A DNA stretch of 50,999 nt, counting the filler, from Jimgerdemannia flammicorona (lineage: Eukaryota), in the NCBI GenBank assembly GCA_003990765.1. It is 2 parts of 2 records of this genome, joined end to end, with 100 filler letters (N's around TTAATTAATTAA, not from the genome) between each part and the next. Parts side by side here need not be neighbours in the genome. Positions count along the whole stretch, not along the records: positions 25,551 to 50,999 come from RBNJ01000831.1; 1 more part is not named here. One strand, given 5' to 3'. Below are positions 4,181-43,420 of this stretch, piece after piece. Under the pieces are notes generated by a model. That model searched no databases, was not told where the DNA came from, and saw nothing but the letters and a program-made list of their open reading frames with translations. Position 1 is the stretch's first letter, and each line of letters starts with the position of its first letter. Position numbers and translations under genes: made by a program.

Positions 4181-5024
4181 TTACGCGTCGGCGATGAGAG
4201 CGACAATCATTCGGTACAGATAGAAGAAAAAGCACTGTCGGTGTGGGATAACGTGAGTATGAACATGCAACTCGCGCTGAACAACACAATTCTGAAGCTC
4301 CCACGTCACCATATTCCCTATAGCATGACTTTACTTACAAGAAGATAAAAGGCAAGCTTGATGAAGCATTCCTTCTTGTGTTGCGATAATGTGCGGAAGA
4401 TTTCAGTGGCGTCATACATGTGGCGGTTATTGGTGATCCTGACGAGCATTGGTGAAGAGACACAGAACCCATAAATATTTCTCATATGAGAATATCACAC
4501 AAACTGGCAGCAACTAGGCGGCCCAATATGCATGTATGTATGTATTTTAACCAATACTCACTTCTGCACGTTGAAAGCGACCAGAGGTAGATTGATAAGG
4601 GCCGCAATCCAACTTCCGTTAAGGAGGAACATGAGGAAGAGGAACGCTTGCGCACCCATCTCGGGCAAGACAAACTATTATGTAAACGGATATAAGCAAG
4701 GTGAATAATTTGCTTGATGGTTAACATAGAACCACACAATCCTAGCGACATGTCTAATTCTGTGCTCTCCACTTCACAATTAGCCCATTCCATGATTTGG
4801 CGCCCTTTCCGTGATGATAAAGAAAGCTTAGCGTAGCCCGTTGAAACTTTGTTCCTTGGCAGTTTGTTCGAGACACGTACCTGGTTCAGTTTGTTGCAAA
4901 GATCGATTGGGTTGATGTAGTCGCATTCCAAGTCGGAAAACATGATCACGAAGAACACCATCATGAACAGCAGCAGCGCCGCCATGATGACACCGAACAA
5001 AAACAGCAAGCCTTCTCCTGGCAT
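4181..5024 (-). CDS. ERV14: Cornichon/Erv14 ER cargo receptor, 4 exons
   Basis: MPGEGLLFLF...FSDLECDYINPIDLCNKLNQ|FVLPEMGAQ...INLPLVAFNVQK..HMYDATEIFRTLSQHKKECFIKLAFYLL|CFFFYLYRMIVALIADA*. Confidence 0.95.
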
Positions 5025-25450: not shown

Positions 25451-25550
25451 NNNNNNNNNNNNNNNNNNNNNNNNNNNNNNNNNNNNNNNNNNNNTTAATT
25501 AATTAANNNNNNNNNNNNNNNNNNNNNNNNNNNNNNNNNNNNNNNNNNNN
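25451..25550. other. Assembly gap with artificial six-frame-stop linker
   Basis: N44-TTAATTAATTAA-N44. This is a contig-joining spacer, so adjacency across it is not established. Confidence 0.95.
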
Positions 25551-29223: not shown

Positions 29224-32200
29224 TTTATAATATAACTAATATATTATAAAATATATATATTGTGATGAGCAAATAGTATAATATAGCCAGATGATATGAA
29301 CTCCCAGCATAGCATAGTTACTAATATATATCACACTTATAATTAGCCAGAATGCTGAATCAGAGTTATTTATCTATATTCTAAGAATATACCTATATCT
29401 AGTAGATATACTTATATTCTGTAGATACACTCATATCTTAAAGATATATCTAAACATTATCAGAGATATTAAATCTATAATTATCCAGATAGCAACCAGA
29501 TAGCAATCACAGTATATAAAATATCTCAGAGATAAGAGTGAATAAACCTTAGTCTAAATTGAAGTATAAATCAAAGAAGTCTCTAAAGATTGAGCATTAG
29601 TTTCCTTATTTCTACTTCAGTCCACTTTCTGATATAAAGAAGAGTTTGTTATATTTTTAGTTTGCTTGCTAGATAAGCCTGAAGATTTGCTACCAAAGTT
29701 CAAGGAAGAACTTTGCTGTCTTTTGAAGCAAAATCTGCTACTTAAGAAATAAGTTGCTGATTTCAAGTTACTTATATTTCCAGAGAGCCCACTATAAGAA
29801 ATCTTGCCATAAGCCAGTCTACTAGATATAACTTCACAGTGATTCATTTATATAAATAAAGCTAGTCTTTGATATAACTTAGGAGCTATACTACTTAAGA
29901 AATATATATACTACATATCATCTCTTAAGATTGAAGTAGTTAAGAAAGAACTAGAAGAGTTACTTATACAAAAAGCCATTCAACCAAGTAAATCCCCTAT
30001 GGCTCACTAGTTTTATTTATCAAAAAGAAGAATAATATCTTATAAATATATATAGACTATTATATACTCAACAAACTTATAGTTAAGAACTGATATCTAC
30101 TACTCTTGATTGATCAAATTTTTAATACTTTCAAGAATACCAAGTACTTCACTAAGCTAGACCTCATGTCAGATTACCACCAAATCTGAATCAAGCTAGA
30201 AGATATTTTTAAGACTATATTTATAACTCTCTTTGAACTCTACAAATTTCTAATACTAGTATTTATCTTATCAATATATTCACTATATGCTAGATCCTCA
30301 TAAATAAAATATTCAAGGACTAACTATTTATATTCTTATTAGTATATCTTAATAACATTTTGATCTTTAATATATTTAAAGAAGAATACCTCAAGCATAT
30401 CTAAGTAGTTTTAGAGATCTTGCAAAAATATAAACTATATATAAAGTTTAAAAAGTATGAATTCTTTAAAGAATAAGTTGAATATCTTGATTACATTGTC
30501 TCTATATAAGGAATTCAAGTAGATCTGTACAAGATAGAGATAATTTAAGAAAGACCTATTCTATCAAATCTTATAAAACTTTAGTTCTTTTTTAATCTAG
30601 CTGACTACTACTATTACTTTATCAGAAATTTCTCTAGCATTACTGAGCTACTTATAAGGAAGAACTCTAACTTTAATTACTATATACTCTATATCAGAGA
30701 CCTCTTTTATCAATAAGCCTTTCAAGAACTCAAGTACTATCTGATCTATACTTCTAGTCTTATACAATATAGATCTGAGTCTGAAATTCACTATTACTAC
30801 TGATATATTAAATTTCACCATTAGAGCAGTTTTGTCAAAAGATGATGATAAAAGACATTGCTCTATTGTCTTTAAGTCTTACAAGTTATCTTTGATTGAA
30901 TAAAAGCTAGCTACATATTTATAAGAAGGAGCTACTGACAATAATATATATATTAGATCACTAGTAATACTATCTAAAAGGTATTGAGTTTGATATTATT
31001 ACTGATCATCAATCACTTAAGTATATTACTACCCAATCTACTCTATTATATCTATAAGCTAATTGGAGCCTTAAGCTTCAAACTTTCAATCCAATAATTA
31101 TCTATAAGCCTAACAAAACAATTATAGTTAGATATTTTATCTAGATATTCAGACCTCAATATAATTATGCAAGTCATTCTAATATTAGAATTTCTAGACT
31201 AAATTAGACAAGCTTATAAAAAAGATACTATTACTACTTGAGTTATTTGAAATAAGCTTAAGGATATATATATCATTAAGGATAATCTGATTTATCATTA
31301 AGACAGAGTCTACCTATCTGACAATATAAATCTATACTATAAGATACTACAAAAACACTATAACTCCCCACTTACTAGTAATCTTAGAATTGAGAAAACT
31401 GTCAAGAACATTCAACACTACTATTATTGACCAAATTATAGTTAAGGAAATTAAGAACTATATTGCTAGCTATAATATCTATTAGTGCAACAAGTCTATC
31501 AATCAAGTACTAGTTAGTTTACTACAATCACTGAGCAAGTTATAATGAACTTTATAACTCAACTATCATGAATATAATCTGGTACTGATGCTATTATCAT
31601 ATTTATTGACTATCTGATCAAGACTATAGTTACTGAATCCACTACTATCAATATTACTATACTTGAGATTGTAAGAATCTTTTTTAAGTCTATCTTCAAT
31701 CACTATGATCTACTATGAGTAATTGTCAGTAACTATGACCTCAAGTTCATAAGTTGCTTCTAGCAAACTCTCTTTAAGACTTTGAGAACCCAGTTGACCA
31801 TATCTATTGCCTTTTACCTACAAACTGATAGACAAACTGAGCATATGAACAGAACCTTAGAATAAATACTCAGAAACTATATTTTTTATGAGTAAGATAA
31901 TTGAGACCACTATCTGAATTATGTAGAATTTATATATAACAATACTATGTAATTATCTACTAATCTTTTCCCCTTTTAGCTACTCTATGATCAAGACTCT
32001 GAGACTCCTGTAAGTCTAGTTTCTTTTAAGAAAAATAGTCAAATATAAGTCTCTACTGCTAAGAATCTCACAGATAAGATAGATGAATTATTCAAAATTA
32101 TTACTGTAAATCTTCAGAAAGCCCAATAATACTAAGTCAAATATACTGATAAGAAGTACCATGATATCATATATACTATTGAAGATCAAGTTCTACTGTC

Positions 32201-32832
32201 TACTGAGAAACTCAAAATATAATCTCAAATCAACTATCTGTTAAATAAATTTCAATCTAAGTATATTGGACCCTTTAAGATTACTAAACAAGTCTTTGTA
32301 TTCTTCTACTATCTCAATTATGTATCTAAAATCATAAGAATATACCCAGTCTTTTATATATCACACCTCAAGATCTGAAACCAATCACTACTCTACTCTG
32401 GTCAAATTTCTAAGCCATCTGCCTCTATAATTATAAAGATCATATTAAGTATAAAGTTAAGAAAATCATTAATAAACAAATCCACTACTATTGTTCTGAA
32501 TATCTGATCAAGTAGATGGACTACTCTAAATATGATACTATCTAAAAACTACTAGTTAATCTTAAGAACTCTTAAGACCTAGTCCAAAACTTTAAAATAA
32601 AATATATTATCTAATCTCTTAGTAACTTCCTTAAATTATTAATGATCTATAGTAATAACCAGTATCTTATATATTAAAAGTTTACTTTAGAATCTGAGAA
32701 CTAGTAGAATGTTTAGTAAATAAGAAGTCTACTGAAATAAAGCTACTAGCTAGATTTAAATCTCTCTTAGATAGTTAGTTTAATAATAGGACCTCTGTTC
32801 TATATAAGAATAGTTAGTTCTTATTAATATAC

Positions 32833-33299
32833 TGTAACGTAGCAGATGCTTACTCTTGAAAGTATGTCAGATTTCTGTATCTTGAAGACTTGACTGTTCT
32901 GACTCTCACAGAGTCTCTTGAAGTTGCAGGGGAGGGTAGGTAAGTTCGAAGTGTATCTGCCTGCAGGCTTACTAGTTTCTTTGCTATCTCTTTGCTTTGA
33001 ACTATTTCAATCTGAGGTTTATTCACTTGAGGATACTGGGTTATTTATACAAGTTTGCTAGCTATGAGATAGTTACTGGGTTATGTGGCTAAGTTATGAG
33101 TTATTTAACACTTTGCGAAATGTTTCACCAGTTGCGAAATGCTATACTATATCGGGGAGCTTGATTTTGCACTCTGCGAAATATTTAGCAAGTTACGAAA
33201 TCGAGGACTGTTAACTATGTGGCTATACTACTTTGGGACTAGGTGCAATCAAGTGTCTATTCCCTATTTCCTTCTTCCAAATCTGGCTATACCATTACA
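32833..33299 (-). repeat. 3' LTR of family B element
   Basis: 467 bp, TG...CA, direct repeat of 39069-39534, PPT adjacent. Confidence 0.95.
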
Positions 33300-33798
33300 A
33301 CTTCCTCCTGAATAGATGATCTCGTCCCTAAAGCATCTATTCAAACTCTCAAGCTTCAATAGTCTGTATGGTCTTATATTGTGCGATTTGTTGCATCACT
33401 GTTTCCCAATGGTGTTGTCTGACTCAGTCGAAGTCTGAGGGGGTCACTCCTCGCAGGTGAGCTAGTGCTAATTCATCCTCTTAGAATAGCTTGTGGATTC
33501 TTTTGGCAATGGTGATCTGAGAATAGGAGAGCTGGCATTCTGCGATCCAATTTTCTTTAGTCATTTCTGGGTCTTGGTTGAGTACTTGGCCGAGTTTGAA
33601 GTACTCCTGGAATTTGTTTCGATGCTGATAGGCCTTGAAGTATGAGATCCAAGAGAGATGAGTCTGCACAATACTTTGGATACTGTCATAAGATTCCTCT
33701 ATAGTCAGAGGCTCAGTGGTACATTATTGTCTCTCGATGGCTCTTTGGGCAGCACTAGTGATCTTGAGTGCTATCACAGTACTTTTGTTACTGACTAT
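33295..33798 (-). pseudogene. ORF3 of family B element, unknown function (about 167 codons, transition-type stops)
   Basis: One frame from ATA (probably ex-ATG) overlapping the integrase stop, through FQEYFKLGQVL..QITIAKRIHKLF..LAHLRGVTPSDF, to the LTR. Each stop can be explained by a single C>T or G>A change. Confidence 0.6.
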
Positions 33799-34981
33799 GA
33801 TATTTCTTGAGTCAGTTTCGGTGAATGGTGGTGGGAATTATTGTGCCTGAGGGTTTTCATAGCCAAAAGGTGGTTTCTTTTATATCTTACATAAGGTAAG
33901 GTCCTTTCCACTTGGGCTCCAGTTTTCGTGACCATGAAGCTTCAACCATATTCCAATACACCAGGACTTTGTCTCCTATCTTGATAATCTCCAAGGGTTT
34001 GTGGGTCTTTTCCACATTCTTCCATTATAGTGTCTGTGCCTTCGTTATGTAATCCTCAGCCTTCTTCCTGATTTGGTGTAGTCTCCATATTTCTATATCC
34101 ACATGTTTCCATACAATATCTCCATTGGATGACAGCATTCTCTGAGAACATTCTTCTCCAAACAGTATTTCTTAAGGGGTAAAGTAGGTGCTTTGTGATT
34201 GGATATCCTGGAGAGCAGATAATGCTATTGGTAGATAGTGATCCCAGTTCTCATAGTTATTGCAGATCTTGGCAATAACATTCTTGAGGGTTTTGTTGGT
34301 TCTTTCTACTTATCCATTTCCTTAAGGGTGATATGCTGTAGTTCGAATATACTGGATCTTGTACTTCTTGTAGAGAACTTTGAAGAACTGATTCATGAAT
34401 TCAGTTCCTCTATCTGTAGTTACTTGTGTTGGGGTCTTGAACCAGCAGATGATTTCTTTGTGGAAGAAATCGGCAATTGACTGTGCATTGGCTTCCATAA
34501 GGGGTCCTGCTTCTATCCATTTTGTAAAGAGGTCTACAATGACAATGATGTATTGATTGCCAGTCAAGATCAAGGGTAGGGGGCCGATTATATCCATTGT
34601 AATGTGGGTGAATGGTACTGGTTCTATGTGTGCTGATCCCAGAGCTTGATTTCATTGGTCTTGTTTCTGTTTCTGGCATTTTTCGCAGGTCTTGACAAGT
34701 TGTCTGATATCTTCCTCCATCCCTGGCCACCATATTGTTCTTCTTGCTTTGTTGTATGTATTTGTTCCTCCTAGATAGCCAAGTTCATGTACTGATTTCA
34801 TTGCTTGCTCCTTCTTGTGTTCTGGTATGACTAGTAGTTTTCCTTTCTTCAATGTTTCTCCATCGGTTTTGAATTGTTTCCATGTTCTGTTGATAATCGT
34901 TTGTGTCCATTCTTCCAGATGTTGGGGCATCTTTCGCTGTCCCAGGTATGTAATAATTCTGTAGTAGAGCTCCTTATTCAT
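33788..34981 (-). pseudogene. Integrase ORF2 of family B element
   Basis: GCC-ATG MNKELYYRIITYL..VHELGYLG..CEKC..MDIIGPL..TDRGTEF..KWKGPY..LKKYHSQ*. One 398-codon frame with internal stops. Confidence 0.85.
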
Positions 34982-37900
34982 GGCAATTTTGTGGGGGTGG
35001 GGTCCTTTGGGGTGTCCATGAGAGGGCATCTGCATTGGCATTAGTTCTTCCAGAGCGATGTATGATAGTTACATCATAAGCTTGCAACTTCATTATCCAT
35101 CTGGCATAGATTCCTTTGGGTTGTCCAGTTGTCAGTAGTCAGGTAAGAGCTGAGTGGTCTGTTTGGATGGTGAAGTATCTTCCAGCCAAGTAGTAGTGGA
35201 ACTTTTCTATGGCCCAGATGACTGCAAGGCATTCCAACTTATAGTATTCATATTCTTTTTCAGCTCCTCGGGTTCTGCGGCTAAGGTATGTGATAACATA
35301 CTCCACTTTATCTTTCTTTTGAGCTAGGACTGCTCCTAGTCCTTGTGTACTTGCATCAGTCTGTAGGATGAATTCCTGAGTCCAGTCAGGTCTTCTGAGG
35401 ATGGGTGCCTGGGTCAGTCTGACCTTGAGTTCATCAAATACTTTTTGTTGTCTGCCGGTCCACTGGAACTTGGTATCCTTCTTGTTAAGTTCATAGATTG
35501 GTCCTACGATGTTGGAGAATCCTCTAATAAATCTGCAATAATAGGAGGTGAGTCCCATGAAGGCTTGGGCTTCTGTAACAGTGGTAGGTCTTGGGTATGC
35601 TGCCACTGCTTGTATCTTGAGGGGGTCTGTGTATGTTCCATCTTGATTAATAATATGGCTGAGATAGGAAATCTTGATTTCTGTGAACTTGCACTTCTTG
35701 GGTTTGATGTAAAGGCCATGTTGTCTTAGTCTCTCCATTATCTGCTGTATATGCTGCAGATGTTCCTCAGGTGTCTTGCTGTAGATGATTACATCATTGA
35801 TGTAGACCATCATTCATCTTCCCATATCATAGCAGAAGATTTTGTTCATCATTCACTGGAAGCTTGCTGGTGCATTGCACATTCCAAATGGCATTTGTAG
35901 GTAGACGTAGGTTCCGTCTGGAGTGATGAAAGCTGACTTTTCACTTGCTATGTCTGTGAGTCCGATTTGGTAGAATCCTGAGTATAAGTCCAAGGTGCTG
36001 TAGTATTGTGCTTCATCTCCCAGTATTATGAGGATGTCATTGATGAGGGGCAGTGGTTGGCGATCCTTCTTGATAACCATGTTGAGTTTTCTGTAGTCAA
36101 CACAGAGTCTTGGGGCGAATTCTTCAGACTTGCTATCTTTTTTCGGGGCCAGTACAACAGGTGAGGACCAGAGACTGCTGGCTTCTTTAATGATGCCGGC
36201 TTCTTCCATCTGCTTGATTTCTTCCCTGAGCCATTCTCAGTAGGCTGGTGGGACAGGTCTTGCTTTCTGATAAATTGGTTCGGTGTCTCCAGTGTCTACT
36301 TTGTGGTAGTAGTGTGGGGTCTTTTCTTTGATATCCTTGAAATCTGTGGCAAGGACATCTTCAAATTCGTGGAGTATTTTCTTGAGTTCTTTCTTGAGTG
36401 GAAATTTATTTCCGATGGTGTAGCTGTGCTTGCTTGTGTTTTCCTCCTTCTTATGCTCGAGTTCGGTGATCTTGGTGTTGGTGAATACTCCTCTTCCTGT
36501 GGATCCAAATCCTTTCTTTTCTCTTCTTGTTTCCTCCAGCTTCTTAACTTCTATAATCTTTGGTTATAGGATCAGAAAGATCAATATTTGTGCCAATCAG
36601 TCCTTCTTCTTGACTGGAAATAGGATTGTAGGATTGTGATTCCTAGCAATGAGTAGGATTTCTCTAATATAGTCTGAATCGATGACTCCTCCTTCGATTG
36701 TAATTTCACTTCTAGCCAGGCTACTTCTTGTCTTGAGAATCCTGACATGATCCTTTGGGATGGTCATCTCCAGTCCAGTTGTGAGTAGGGTGGTTGTCTG
36801 GGGTTCCAGTACAGTCTCTTCTACCATAGCAATGTCCATTCCAGCTGCATTTTCTGACTTGTATTCTGGTAAGACTGCATCAGGGTGGATCTTTTGAATC
36901 TTGACCTTGATTTCTTCTTCATCATCACTGTCCTCCAGGAGGGCTGGTGGTTCGTCATCTTCCTCCTTCTCTTCTTCCTTGATCTGTTTTTCGAGAGCTT
37001 TCTGCCTTCTTTCCTGGTGAATCTTCTTGATTCCGATAGTGTACTGGTAGCAATTATTGATATGCTCCATATAGTATATCTTGATCCTGTGAGGATAGAC
37101 TCCTTGTGGTGCATAGCCTTCTGCCATCTTCTTGCACCATTCTTCTTCACTCATCCATCCAACTTTCTTCTTCCTTGGAGTAGTCACTATATAAGCTTCC
37201 TCTTGCTCGCTCTCTTCTTCCTCCATGTTGGGCAGGACTCCTTTGTTGACATTGATGGAAATTTGTATCTTCTGTCCTCGGTAGGTGATCTGCATCTTCT
37301 GGGCATTGAGATTGATTACTGCTTTGGCTTTGTGAAGCCATTAATTGCCAATGAGAATGTCATAGTTGGTAGCATTGGTTATGATTACATCTACTGGAAT
37401 TGTTGCTCCTCTGATCTTGATGGGAACATCTCAGATCTTTCCCAGAGGTGTGGCCCTTGTACTGTCAGCTGTAACGAATACCAGCTTAGTTGCTTCTTCT
37501 ATATTCCAACCTAGGCAGTCTGCTGTCTTCTTGCTGAGAAGACATCCTCCTGCTCCTGTATCAATGATGGCCTCAAAGATCCTATCTTCAATTTGGCATG
37601 TTGCATAAGCAGAGGTTTTGCTATTATCCTCGCTTTCTTCTCCTGAGTCCTCTTGAGTATTATTGGCCTCGGTTATCTTCCATTCTTGTTCCTTAGTTGT
37701 TTCGGCAAGTCCAAACCTCATTTGTTGTCTGAATGTTGAGATTTCTGCGAGCTGACCAAAGGTTGCATTGACCTTTTATTGGCTGAGGTCCTTGAAGATA
37801 TCATACTTGAAGGTCTTGGTCTTGTGAAGCTTCCTTTCTTTTTCTCCTTCACTGGCTGAAGTGGTTCCTTGGATGATATCTTGAACTGCTTGCTCTAGCT

Positions 37901-38966
37901 CTGTATCTTGGTCTATCTCTTTGACTTAACTTTCTGTGGTAGTTTCCATCTACTTTTCCACTGGATTCTTCTTGGGTCTTCCTGGTGGTCTCTTGTAGGG
38001 TTCTTTGCGAGCATCCTTCTTAGTGGTCTGAGCAGGATAGGTCTCCCATTCTTCTTCATCGGAATCTCCAATCTCCTTGAAGATAATTGTATTGGCCTGC
38101 TCCTTGTTTCATGTAGCATTACTTAGTTGAGCCTTGTGCTTGGTTTCACTCATGCATTCATAGGAGTAGTGGCCTTCTTCTCCACAAGTGTAGCAGGTAC
38201 CTTTCTTCTTTTCTGAGGTGGTGGCGAACTTCTAGACAGGGCGACGGTCTCTTCCTCGAATTTTCTTTACCACATCTCCCAGGTGGGCAGTCATTTCAGC
38301 AAACCTTTTGGCGAGTTCCTCCATAGGGTTACTGTTCTTTTGCTGCTCTGTAGCTTTTGGCTGAGATATATTTCGATTGATCATTATGGTAGGGATCACA
38401 CTGGTTGCCTTGGGTGCCTCAATTCTGACTCCTGTGACCCTTTCCATTGTATGGTCTTGTAGATGTCTGGCAATTCAGTATCACTGAGCATAGGTGACCT
38501 TCTGTGGCAGATCCAGAATTACTGGTGATGAGCAGATGGCCATGGCTATTTCTGGATGAACTCCTTTCATGAAGGTTGCTTCAGCTACTTGATCTCAGAT
38601 AGCAGCAGCATAATCTGTAAGGATTATCTGATATCAAATTCTGGTATAGAATGTGTTTGGATTCTCACTCATTCCTTGGCATGTTGTGTTGAGCTGATCC
38701 TTCAGGGCTTGCTTGATCTCATCTGTATAATATGTATTTTGGAGCCAGGTCTTCTGTACTGTCAGTATAACATCAGCATCATTTCCTGTATAGGTTGTGG
38801 CTGTGAATACTGCTCTGGTAGGGCCTCGTAGGCTGAAGGACATGAGGGCTACTTGCTGTGCTGCTGTCAGGGTCCTTACAGTGGCATACTGCTCAAAATC
38901 GTCAATGAAGGTGATGATCGATTTATCTGAGGTATATCCGTGGAATACTAGTAGTCTCATATCCAT
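34974..38966 (-). pseudogene. ORF1 gag-protease-dUTPase-RT-RNaseH of family B element
   Basis: ORF-track pieces starting at 38966, 38447, 37721, 37295, 36209 and 35813 are all in the same frame (1331 codons), interrupted by point-mutation stops. Confidence 0.88.
36495..36915 (-). other. dut: dUTPase domain within ORF1 (between protease and RT)
   Basis: Five trimeric dUTPase motifs: AAGMDI, TRSSLA, GGVIDSDYIREI, D*LAQIL (TGA from CGA), and LEETRREKKGFGSTG. Confidence 0.92.
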
Positions 38967-39068
38967 CTTGTCTGGATATTGGGGCTTGGTTTGGGTAGTG
39001 GTGGTTGTTCGTTGTTCAGCTTGAAAGTGAGGGATTCATCTTGAATCACCAGCCAATGGGCACCAAGT

Positions 39069-39534
39069 TGTAATGTAGTGGATGCTTACTCTTAAAAGTA
39101 CATTGGATTTCTGTATCTTGAAGACTTGACTGTTCTGACTCTCGCAGAGTCTCTTGAAGTTGCAGGAGAGGGTGGGTGAGTTCGAAGTGTATCTGTCTGC
39201 AGGCTTACTAGTTCCTTTGCTATCTCTTTGCTTTGAACTATTTCGATCTGAGGTTTATTCACTTGAGGATACTGGGTTATTTATACAAGTTTGCTAGCTA
39301 TGAGATAGTTACTGGGTTATATGGCTAAGTTATGAGTCATTTAACACTTTGTAAAATATTTCGCCAATTGCAAAATGCTATACTTATCAGGGAGCTCAAT
39401 CTTGTACTCTGCGAAATATTTAGCAAGTTGCAAAATCGAGGACTGTTAACTATGTGGCTATACTACTTTGGGACTGGGTGCGATTAAGTATCTATTTCCT
39501 ATTTTCTTCTTCCAAATCTGGCTATACCATCACA
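39069..39534 (-). repeat. 5' LTR of family B element
   Basis: 466 bp, TG...CA, PBS adjacent, followed by TSD ATAC. Confidence 0.95.
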
Positions 39535-39629
39535 ATACTAATATAAGTTTGAGAAATTTTAATTAAGTATATTTAGTCTTATATAACTTAAGAACTCAAT
39601 GAGGATATTAGTTCTTAAGAAGAGAGGGA

Positions 39630-40094
39630 TATAATAATTTTATAGTTATATTTTAGTCTTAGTACTTTTTTATATCTTTCTACTAATCTTTTCTTGTCTT
39701 TTTATAAATATTCTACTATGTTTCAGCATCTTTTAAGTATCTAGAAATCTTCTCTTAGTACTAAGACATCACTAGAACATTTTTGTCTTTTCTTGATACT
39801 AAGCTATACTAAGTATCTAGTTATAGAACCTTTTGGAATATTGTAGAATTCTATTAATTATCTTTGCTAAAAATCTATTTCTTGGCCTTTTTTTTCTTTT
39901 CCAAGATCCATTTAGATCTTTCTTTCAGATCTTATATAAATATCCTTATTCTCTGCTTGAATAAAACTTAGAATAGTTTCTCTCAGAATTCTTTTGAGAA
40001 TACTTAAACTTATAAGTATCTCTTTAAGCTACTTTAAGTCTATTAGAATTATCAGACTTAACTACTTTCTCTTAAAGAAACTAGAACTATTATA
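39630..40094 (+). repeat. 3' LTR of family A element
   Basis: 465 bp after a polypurine tract; inverted copy of 41108-41572. Confidence 0.8.
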
Positions 40095-41572
40095 ATATTA
40101 TCTAAGTATACTTAAATAAATACTTTAAGATATTTTCAAAATATATCATTCATCAGTAACTAAAAGATTACTAATATATTAGTAAGTCTAAAAGATATTA
40201 TATAGAATTTAAAATATTCAAATTTTGTTTAAAATATTATTTTTGGAATATCTTCTTTCTTAATATAAATTTGGTGATATTTAAATATAAGATCAATAAG
40301 TAAAAAAGTCTTAGTATTATATATTTAGTCAAGTAGTTTATTAATTTATAGAAGTATATATTACTTCTTAACAGATATTTTGTTAAGTATTTAGTAATCA
40401 ATATATATATAGAGGCTTCTATCTTTCTTTCAAATAAAGAGGATTAGTATACTATCCTCAGATATCACTGGTAACTCAAATAGGATTGATAAGAATTATA
40501 TATTATAGTTTTGTACAGACTTGAGTTACTTGATGTTTGCTAACTTGTCTCTGGCTAGTTTGGTAGCATTAACAGGCTTGAACTGCTTGTGAAGAGCTCT
40601 CTTGAAGGCTTTCTAGTCTCTGATTCATACATATGAGTGTACAGAAGTAACTATGATATGATTGTATCACTAGATAGCTGTATTTCCTTAGAGAAGTATG
40701 GTGGTAAATTGGACTTGCATGTTATCTTCCATTCTTGTGAGCTTGAAGTATTGGTCTAACTGGAAGATTCATGCATCTGTAGATAGTCCTTCTCAATGGC
40801 TATTGAAGGTATCTGGCTTGAGTAGCTTGAAACTAACTAATGCTATAGTGGAATATAATATACTTACAGTTTGTATTTTCTGCTATTTTAGTTGTACTTG
40901 AAGTTCTTGGATTTGGTGGACTATAGTATTGATTATGTCCTTTATACTAAGTTGCTGTCCTCCTGCTTCTTCTGTAGCAGAGGGGTCTGGCTGGTAGACT
41001 GACTCTTTGTAGCTTATTTCAGATTCATGTAACTATTTGTGACTAGTTTCTGAATTCATGTGAGGTTTCTTAATAAGGCAAGGTGTAATGACACTACTGC
41101 TATCAAGTGTAACAGTTCTAGTTTCTTTAAGAGGAAGTGGCTAAATCTGGAAGTTCTAGTTGACCTAAAGTAGTTCAAAGAGATACTTAAAAGTTCAAGT
41201 ATTTTTGAAGAATTTCTGGGAGAAAAATATTCTGAGCTTTATTCAGATAGAGAATAAGAATATTTATATATGATCTGAAAGAAAGATCTGGAAGGATCTT
41301 GGAAAGAAAGAAAAATGCCAAGAAATAGGTTTTCAGCAAAGCTGACTAATACTATTCTACAATGTTCTGAAAGGTTCCATGATTAGCTAAGATAAGATAC
41401 TTAGTACCAAGGAAAGACAAGAATGTTCTAGTAGTGTCTGGATGCTGAGAGAAGGTTTCTAAGCAAGTAGAAGATAGTGGAACATAGTAGAATGTTCAAG
41501 AAATGATAAGAAAAGACTAACTAAAAGATGCAAAAATGTACTAAGACTAAATATGACTGTGAAATTGTTATA
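40095..41572 (-). mobile_element. Second family A copy: 5' LTR (41108-41572), PBS and degenerate gag
   Basis: PBS TGATAGCAG (compare tRNA-iMet-type TGGTAGCAG). Gag-like KPDTFNSH..IFQLDQYF..KAFKRALHKQFKPVN..ARDKL. Confidence 0.75.
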
Positions 41573-42752
41573 ATATTTCTCTGATTTCCTTTACCACATC
41601 TCTTAAGTAAGCAGTTATTTCTGCAAACTTCTTGGCTAGTTTCTCCATGAGATCATTGTTTCTTTGCTGCTTAGTAGCTCTTAGTTGAGATATATTTTGA
41701 TTGATCACTATAGTAGAGATTACACTAGTTATCTTGAATACTTTGATTCTAACTTCAGTGACTCTTTTTATTATATAGTCTTGTAGATATCTAGCTATCC
41801 AGTATTGCTTAGTATAGGTGATCTTTTGTACCAGATCTAAGACTACTAGTGATAAGTGGATGGCTAAAACTATTTCTAAATAGACTCTCTTTATAAAGAT
41901 TACTTTAACTACTTGATCTCAGATAGCAGTATCATAATCTATAAGGATTATTTAATATCAAATTCTGGTATAGAATGTATTTAGATCCTCACTCATTTCT
42001 TATATAAGTTATAGTTGTAAATACTGCTCTTACTAAGTCTCAGAGACTAAAGAGCATGAGGACTACTTGCTATCATACTGTCAGGATTCTTATAATAGTA
42101 TATTGCTCAAAATCATCAATGAAGATAATGATTGATTCATCTGAAGTATATCTATAGAATACTAGTAGTCTTATATCTATCTTGTCTAAATGTCTTGGTT
42201 TAATTTATATGGTTATTCAGATAGTAGTAATTATTTATTATTTAGCTTAAAAGTGAGAAATTTATCTTAAATTACTAGCCAATAAGTACTAAGTTATAAT
42301 GTAGCAGATATATAACTGTATAAGTATGTTAGATTTCTATATCTTGAAAACTTGATCTTATAGAGTTCTTCAGATATAGAGGTAGATGAGTTTGAAGTAT
42401 ATCTGTCTGCAGGCTTACTAGTTCTCTTACTTTTTCTTTACTTTGAACTATTTCAATCTGAGGTTTATTCACTCTAGATATGTGCTGGAGATATTTATAT
42501 AAGTTTGCTAGCTATAAGATAACTAAGTTATGACTATATTTTCTGTAAGTCACTTTTTATAAGTATTAAATCTATAACATCTGTTAAATCTTAATATTTG
42601 TAAAAATGTTAACATTTGTCAAAACTTTAATATTTGTGAAATAACTGCTATTTATAAGGCTATTCTATATTTGGGAATCAGATTCAAATACTATAATTAA
42701 ATATCTATTCTCCTGATTTATATTCCTAATTCAGATCAACTATCACATTATA
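41573..42752 (-). mobile_element. Older family B copy: gag fragment, PBS and 5' LTR (about 42295-42752)
   Basis: Aligns by eye to 38260-39300 (for example ctttaccacatctc, acttgatctcagatagcag, tgcaggcttactagtt) with many more C>T/G>A changes. Confidence 0.85.
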
Positions 42753-42839: not shown

Positions 42840-43420
42840 GATATTATCTAGAAGATATTGAATTTAATATTATTACTAATTATCAATCTCTCAAGTATAT
42901 TAATACTCAATCTACTTTATTATATCAATAAGCTAAGTAGAGCCAAAAGCTTCAAACCTTCAATCTGATACATAATTATCTATAAGCTTGGTAAGACACT
43001 TATAGTATTAGATATCTTATTAAGATATTTAGACCTTATTATAATAATATAAGTTATCTTGATATCAGAATTTCTAGATAAAATTAGATAAAATTTCCAA
43101 AGAAGATACTATTGCTACTAGAGTTTTTTTGAACAATCTTAAGGATATATACTATTAAGAATAATCTGATATATTATTAAAATAAATTTTATCTATTAAG
43201 TAATATAAAACTCCACTATAAGATATTATGAGAATATTATAACTCACTATTTGCTAATTATCTTAGAATTGAGAAAACTATTAAAACCCTTCAGTAATAC
43301 TATTACTGGTCTAATATAATCAAGAAAATCAAGAACTATATTACTAGTTATAATCTATACTAGTATGTAAGCCTAGTAACTAAGACCAGCTAGTCTACTT
43401 TAGTCTTTGTCAATTTCTTT
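42840..43420 (+). mobile_element. Third family A fragment (RNase H to integrase Zn-finger region)
   Basis: Similar to 30970-31530 (aagcttcaaac, aagaagatacta, tcttagaattgagaaaact, aagaactatatt). Confidence 0.75.

Follow-up and report, generated by a model that had tools for sequence, protein, structure and literature searches.

A dUTPase between protease and reverse transcriptase in a non-chromoviral Ty3/Gypsy family of Jimgerdemannia flammicorona with a separate integrase reading frame

LTR retrotransposons that carry a dUTPase between protease and reverse transcriptase (PR-dUT-RT) have been described in both fungi and animals. PosPlaTy3-5 of Postia placenta has the domain in this position, PosPlaTy3-3 and PosPlaTy3-4 have it in other positions, and elements of Phanerochaete chrysosporium as well as Tmt1 of Tuber melanosporum are cited as further carriers in the available text of PMC2864245. 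According to the same text, fungal elements gained their dUTPases independently from different sources, and the role of the domain in these elements remained unclear. The fungal carriers are called chromoviruses, at least in the accessible portions of PMC2774666 and in the caption of Additional file 2 of PMC2864245. The bdelloid rotifer LTR retrotransposons Juno, Vesta, and TelKA likewise have a dUTPase between protease and reverse transcriptase (excerpts of PMC5408684), as does a giant planarian element, the position being described as common to fungal and rotifer elements (excerpts of PMC6431247). PMC3248453 contains no mention of dUTP, and an enrichment of dUTPase domains is all that is mentioned in the available part of an Entomophthora preprint. 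Outside the retrotransposons, the closest parallel is provided by betaretroviruses and non-primate lentiviruses, whose trimeric, five-motif dUTPase is part of a polyprotein and is released by proteolysis; the passages available from PMC4531489 describe its role in retroviruses.

The element analysed here is an LTR retrotransposon of 6.7 kb on the minus strand of the window (i.e., the whole stretch of 50,999 nucleotides that was analysed), at positions 32833-39534. The window joins two contigs of a 231-Mb assembly (35,354 contigs) across an N gap at 25451-25550, and the element lies on the second contig. Its 5' LTR (39068-39534, minus strand, TG...CA ends) and 3' LTR (32833-33299, minus strand) are direct repeats of each other, 467 bp each, and the same four bases flank the element on the left (32829-32832) and on the right (39535-39538). 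Of the 21 full-length sister copies listed, most likewise have 4-bp target-site duplications. A putative primer-binding site (39048-39064, minus strand) begins with TGG three bases past the 5' LTR, and a purine run directly before the 3' LTR (33300-33310, minus strand) forms a putative polypurine tract; both are conserved in the copies. Searches with tRNA-end patterns gave no convincing match to the putative primer-binding site: four matches were obtained, and the only one of them accepted by ARAGORN as a tRNA had a stop anticodon and did not match the site.

An AT-rich, heavily decayed remnant (29892-32156, plus strand), 66% identical to the pol of another LTR family of this genome (family B, see below), adjoins the element, and part of it is repeated at 42972-43364 (approx. 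42970-43360). A second, more decayed fragment of the element's own family (LTR and gag, 75%) lies at 41576-42532, and the inverted arms at 39652-40092 and 41110-41551 consist of sequences common to the flanks of family B copies. Before the N gap, the window contains genes for histones H4, H3, H2A, and H2B and, as judged by eye, APC1-like, monothiol glutaredoxin-like, and RAD51-paralog-like genes, none of which are known neighbours of the element. The H2A of the window has its best scores, one longer construct aside, with entries called H2A-alpha, H2A.1, and H2A.2, which are yeast names; these scores, together with repeats that group with Gypsy proteins bearing a chromodomain, point to a fungal host.

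Translation and Pfam searches revealed that ORF1 (34974-38966, minus strand, 1330 codons) encodes gag, a CCHC knuckle (38201-38151), an aspartic protease (RVP_2, E 5.5e-9; gag-asp_proteas, E 6.6e-9), a Cys/His-rich spacer, a dUTPase, a reverse transcriptase core (RVT_1, E 6.4e-29), and RNase H (35076-35462; RT_RNaseH, E 5.8e-33) in one frame, although with many stops in this copy (17 in the 1310 codons translated). The Cys/His-rich motif in the protease-dUTPase spacer (37041-37097, minus strand) is a possible zinc finger that is mostly decayed here but visible in sister copies. The PR-dUT-RT order in a single frame, which had been proposed in a reading of the sequence alone (hereafter, the sequence-only reading), was borne out, with protease at 37610-37311, dUTPase at 36905-36489, and reverse transcriptase at 36137-35649. 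The dUTPase does lie inside a long frame, as that reading held; however, this frame is not a full gag-pol ORF since it ends after RNase H and the integrase is encoded separately.

The identity of the dUTPase is supported by Pfam, by PDB sequences, and by other copies of the family. Its five motifs occur on the minus strand, in the frame of 38966-34974 and at the positions first proposed, in the order 1-5 over the full PF00692 model (stretch 36875-36495), as expected for the trimeric type. The stop-free part of the domain alone matches the Pfam dUTPase model with E 2e-14; when its two stops are read as X, the match covers model positions 4-129 and improves to E 7e-24, with 84.5 bits (cut-off 22) against 29.2 bits for the dCTP deaminase model (DCD). 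A stop-free sister copy matched 71 distinct PDB sequences (best E 1e-22), and the 60 of these that were listed are all dUTPases or dUTPase-bearing chains. Fourteen key residues of the enzyme are present in the window copy, and each was found in 31-40 of 40 copies. The domain is complete in length, as claimed, but not in every motif position, because motifs 3 and 5 have each lost a glycine by substitution, at 36665 and 36521, respectively. Its two stops, TGA at 36599-36597 and TAA at 36566-36564, are sense codons in 21 and 33 of 40 copies, respectively, which agrees with the earlier view that they arose by C-to-T decay after insertion. With two stops in the dUTPase, two substituted motif glycines, and 17 stops in the frame, the window copy itself is dead; nonetheless, these data support a real, in-frame dUTPase domain that was intact while the family was spreading.

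In Ty3/Gypsy elements, the integrase is usually the C-terminal part of the Pol polyprotein, an arrangement that is typical rather than defining. The window element has the Ty3/Gypsy domain order PR-RT-RNase H-integrase by Pfam positions, yet its integrase is not the C-terminal part of Pol but a separate ORF with its own ATG. This ORF2 (33788-34981, minus strand) lies in another frame and contains an H2C2 finger (Integrase_H2C2, E 4.9e-17), an rve core (E 7e-12), and a GPY motif. Its start overlaps the ORF1 stop by eight bases, ATGAATAA (34974-34981, minus strand), and the overlap is present in 34 of the 36 copies that cover the site, in two subfamilies that differ just upstream. An intact element identified in a metagenome scan (L109), which has the same domain order, shows an ATGA overlap at the ORF1/ORF2 junction, and all ten relative proteins described below end 32-49 residues past their RNase H match. 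Taken at sequence level, the junction suggests stop-restart translation. No title or abstract describing an overlap of the ORF1 stop with an integrase ATG in LTR elements was found in a thin literature search. A third frame, ORF3 (33337-33798, minus strand, approx. 153 codons), overlaps the integrase stop by 11 bases; its start codon is lost in the window copy, and an ATG is found at the expected site in all 12 listed sister copies that cover it. L109 has a third ORF in the same place (L109:5960-6652, 230 aa), for which no Pfam match was found.

Relatives were sought with a protein query that included both dUTPase and reverse transcriptase (120 of 191 matches listed). In the ten best full-coverage matches, the dUTPase is followed by reverse transcriptase and RNase H, and it is preceded by a protease in nine; the exception, P0008, is truncated. 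These ten proteins, L109, and the window family fall into one RT-RNase H clade (14 rows, support 100), nested among Gypsy-type polyproteins and apart from the chromovirus group, which contains the chromodomain rows (23 rows, support 97). The tree was a FastTree reconstruction of 128 rows, rooted on badnaviruses and free of Copia and BEL rows; 8 proteins (one of them, P0019, with a dUTPase) and 2 loci had been set aside for short coverage. Moreover, no Chromo match was found by Pfam in ORF2, in a search in which family C of the same genome scored E 4e-16. The window element is therefore a non-chromoviral Ty3/Gypsy element, as it is without a chromodomain and its reverse transcriptase lies outside the chromovirus group. 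A dUTPase, 32-45% identical, is common to 11 of 11 intact clade relatives from metagenomes, a count biased upward by the presence of the dUTPase in the query. A search with the dUTPase alone yielded no longer polyproteins at E 1e-10 among 426 candidates, which is weak evidence. Since the domain occurs in all clade relatives, it predates the window family, and the proposed independent capture is not supported. Four of the relatives (P0003, P0005, P0007, and P0008) have an additional stretch in the protease-dUTPase spacer (NPHPF ... FW ... YWDE, noted by eye) that is absent from the window family.

The PR-dUT-RT layout had been regarded as potentially novel, but it has already been published for Postia PosPlaTy3-5 and for rotifer and planarian elements (PMC2864245, PMC5408684, and PMC6431247, each in the text available). 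What distinguishes the window element from these published elements is a non-chromoviral fungal clade together with a split integrase. It shares with the Postia, Phanerochaete, and Tmt1 elements a fungal Gypsy background and a dUTPase in pol, and with PosPlaTy3-5 the order PR-dUT-RT; unlike them, it is non-chromoviral and has a separate integrase ORF, a comparison made with their partial published descriptions only. Juno, Vesta, and TelKA, as described in the available text, come close in another respect, having PR-dUT-RT, no chromodomain, and a third ORF, but they reside in animals, and the extra Zn knuckle of Juno follows the dUTPase, whereas the Cys/His motif of the window family precedes it. 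Rotifer proteins in the reverse transcriptase tree lack a dUTPase and branch elsewhere, and no close kinship was seen; the named published carriers are absent from both the reverse transcriptase and the dUTPase trees. Retroviral dUTPases differ in position, being located either before the protease (NC-dUT) or between RNase H and integrase, and their activity and benefit in non-dividing cells have been shown, whereas for the window family they are inferred by analogy (PMC4531489, in part).

Within the same genome, two unrelated LTR families (among the loci L061-L089 and L090-L108) have a dUTPase that follows the nucleocapsid knuckle and precedes the protease. Families B and C (L090-L098 and L099-L108, respectively) are, like the window family, LTR elements whose polyprotein includes a dUTPase with five motifs; in family C, a Cys/His motif of similar kind and the short spacing between motifs 2 and 3 are also present. 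However, in both families the dUTPase precedes the protease and the reverse transcriptase belongs to the chromovirus group, and in family C the integrase and a chromodomain lie in the same frame. Chromovirus-group elements with PR-dUT-RT and others with RNase H-dUT-integrase were encountered among the metagenome loci, and elements with a dUTPase after the integrase among the 120 of 191 protein matches listed. With at least four placements in this sample, the position of the dUTPase is labile, the order in the window being one of them.

Several observations bear on whether the enzyme was active. An alignment of two family copies with eight relatives that are 35-48% identical has 19 dUTPase columns without variation. 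The five motifs account for 13 of these, including the motif-3 Asp, which coordinates the attacking water in dUTPases (PMC4531489, in the passages available). Given catalytic positions that do not vary among eight distant relatives, the dUTPase of the window family was very probably functional. The whole gag-to-RNase H frame of L109 is open (1577 codons). Transversions among copies of the window family give 16 non-synonymous changes at 339 sites and 9 synonymous changes at 72 sites in the dUTPase (ratio 0.38; Fisher p 0.025, an uncorrected single test on 25 rare variants), compared with ratios of 0.40 for reverse transcriptase, 0.43 for RNase H, 0.81 for protease, and 0.53 for gag. Variants common to at least three copies (one non-synonymous and no synonymous in the dUTPase) are uninformative.

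By analogy with retroviruses, the domain would most likely have served to prevent uracil from entering the cDNA. Since gag and pol are not separated by a frameshift, every Gag would come with one dUTPase, which would thus be packaged in the particle, where the protease would free it, either alone or with the Cys/His spacer. The freed enzyme would trimerise and convert dUTP to dUMP and pyrophosphate, so that low dUTP near the reverse transcriptase would leave little uracil in the cDNA, which could then escape uracil-excision damage. After insertion, cytosine-directed C-to-T decay by the host, strongest at CpG, would ruin the copies, including the one in the window. The scheme, from the packaging of Gag and dUTPase in equal numbers through proteolytic release and trimer formation to a lower dUTP level for the reverse transcriptase, is probable on this analogy. 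Against it, the sister proteins P0023 and P0034, which also end after RNase H, are without a dUTPase, so that related elements manage without the domain, and the host has an intact dUTPase gene of its own (L190). A retained domain might instead serve a non-catalytic role: it could assist particle assembly, interact with proteins, or, jointly with the Cys/His spacer, bind nucleic acids, while catalysis would have become secondary or been lost. The conserved Cys/His motif in the adjoining spacer would suit such a role, and a lentiviral dUTPase-related gene that is needed without activity offers a precedent (PMC4261571, as far as its available text goes); nevertheless, that lentiviral domain has 74 residues whereas the window domain is full length, and the invariant columns correspond to catalytic motif residues rather than surface positions, which makes this alternative unlikely.

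The retention and decay of the domain can be followed through the other copies in the genome. The search for further copies advised by the sequence-only reading was productive: of 2407 candidates in a DNA search, 40 were scored, and the 39 other than the window copy are 92-93% identical over the query and all carry the dUTPase. In these 40 copies, the domain has no indel; 13 are stop-free in it, and 6 are both stop-free and in possession of all 14 key residues. A sample blind to the dUTPase, namely 20 copies out of 53 that match a reverse transcriptase 25-mer exactly, also carries the domain in 20 of 20 cases (two with a frameshift), which gives 60 of 60 copies examined. Exact 25-mers occur 35 times (dUTPase) and 53 times (reverse transcriptase) in the genome, and near-same 25-mers were matched in 4 and 16 of the 40 sampled copies, respectively; dividing the counts by the sampled shares suggests, very roughly, a family of 130-350 copies.

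These copies bear the marks of a directed mutational process. Across 24 LTR pairs (11,075 sites), 694 transitions, 358 of them at CpG and 205 at CpA, contrast with 42 transversions, and the LTR pair of the window copy differs by 37 transitions and no transversions in 467 sites. The CpG observed/expected ratio is 0.23 for the element, compared with 0.93 for the intact relative L109 and 1.02 for the genic part of the window. Few transversions and many C-to-T changes indicate young copies hit by cytosine-directed mutation, which may be methylation-driven or RIP-like. It might be argued that the dUTPase is a counter-defence against such mutagenesis, which would explain three carrier families in a heavily mutated genome; a first look with Pfam turned up 8265 candidate dUTPases across the genome, with 150 of them scored, and the repeats of this genome are indeed heavily C-to-T mutated. 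However, the substrate of a dUTPase is the free nucleotide, and the enzyme cannot shield cytosines already in DNA from deamination. The window family was mutated regardless of its dUTPase, a retrocopy of a host gene decayed likewise, and the domain is older than the family in this genome. Hence, a counter-defence function is improbable, somewhat more so than a non-catalytic role. The retrocopy in question is L060, an intron-less processed copy, 97-99% identical, of the intact host dUTPase gene L190, which has three introns; all 13 differences between L060 and the L190 exons are CpG transitions.

The existence of this retrocopy shows that the host dUTPase transcript has been retrocopied at least once, and an AU test did not reject a grouping of the clade with host-type eukaryotic dUTPases (p 0.087), but a recent capture of the host transcript by the window family as a near-neutral passenger is very improbable and its recency largely refuted, given that the window dUTPase shares 44-46% identity with its clade relatives but 35% with the host retrocopy, has a motif 2-3 spacing one residue shorter than host-type enzymes, is parted from these by a 98/97 branch, and has motifs conserved across the clade. 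Judged from these comparisons, the domain is an old acquisition rather than a recent host capture.

The 98/97 branch separates the window dUTPase from the host type and unites it with enzymes of phages, metagenomes, badnaviruses, and other retroelements, in a 71-row tree whose bootstraps were unsettled and in which long branches may drive the grouping; a 129-row dUTPase tree was a quick tree only. The dUTPase tree is poorly resolved. A single origin of the clade alone (p 0.22) was not rejected by the AU test either, nor was the union of all 22 short-spacer retroelement rows (p 0.27), a group named after seeing the data. Tree building, recommended earlier as a way to the donor, recovered a reverse transcriptase clade with relatives but did not single out a donor. 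The short motif 2-3 form was found in 3 of 120 stand-alone matches, 17 of 80 viral dUTPases, and 12 of 66 other metagenome dUTPases; being common to viral and metagenome enzymes, it is not a clean marker. Two badnavirus polyproteins have dUTPases with the same short spacing as the window clade (P0030, P0046, and L229). Phage dUTPases reach 49% identity to the L109 domain, which is no better than the values within the clade, and thus a phage donor is not supported.

Exchange between retroelement families is another possible source. The dUTPase of family C is 41% and that of family B 33% identical to that of the window family. By neither BLAST nor tree is the dUTPase of family C the closest to the window clade, which counts against a module swap. 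On the other hand, Cys/His stretches like that of the window family occur in the relative P0011 (620-669) and in family C (L104/L105, near 4440-4550), the motif preceding the dUTPase in the window family and following it in the chromovirus family C; such a motif beside the dUTPase in both families makes a module exchange possible. P0006 and P0012 have a shorter version of the motif. An Atlas feature search with the P0011 stretch found only matches at 0.75, i.e., at chance level, and none at or above 0.9. It may tentatively be proposed, although with less than even confidence, that the window family belongs to an old non-chromoviral clade, undescribed in the literature searched, in which the PR-dUT-RT order occurs together with a third ORF and an integrase translated on its own; that its dUTPase came from a pool of viruses and retroelements instead of a fungal host, as would be suggested by the short motif 2-3 spacing found also in badnaviruses and some chromoviruses; and that the dUTPase and Cys/His motif were swapped as a module with family C. 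If this is true, dUTPases would have spread among retroelements by recombination and not by repeated capture from hosts.

As a layout, the element adds little, given the PR-dUT-RT Gypsy elements published for fungi, rotifers, and planarians, and its separate integrase ORF is a stranger feature than the placement of its dUTPase. Nonetheless, a dUTPase that has reached fixation in a large family and is maintained throughout a non-chromoviral clade supports a selected function, a question that had been left open earlier. With three dUTPase-bearing families in two layouts, the genome of J. flammicorona is well suited for studying whether this domain is traded among retroelements.
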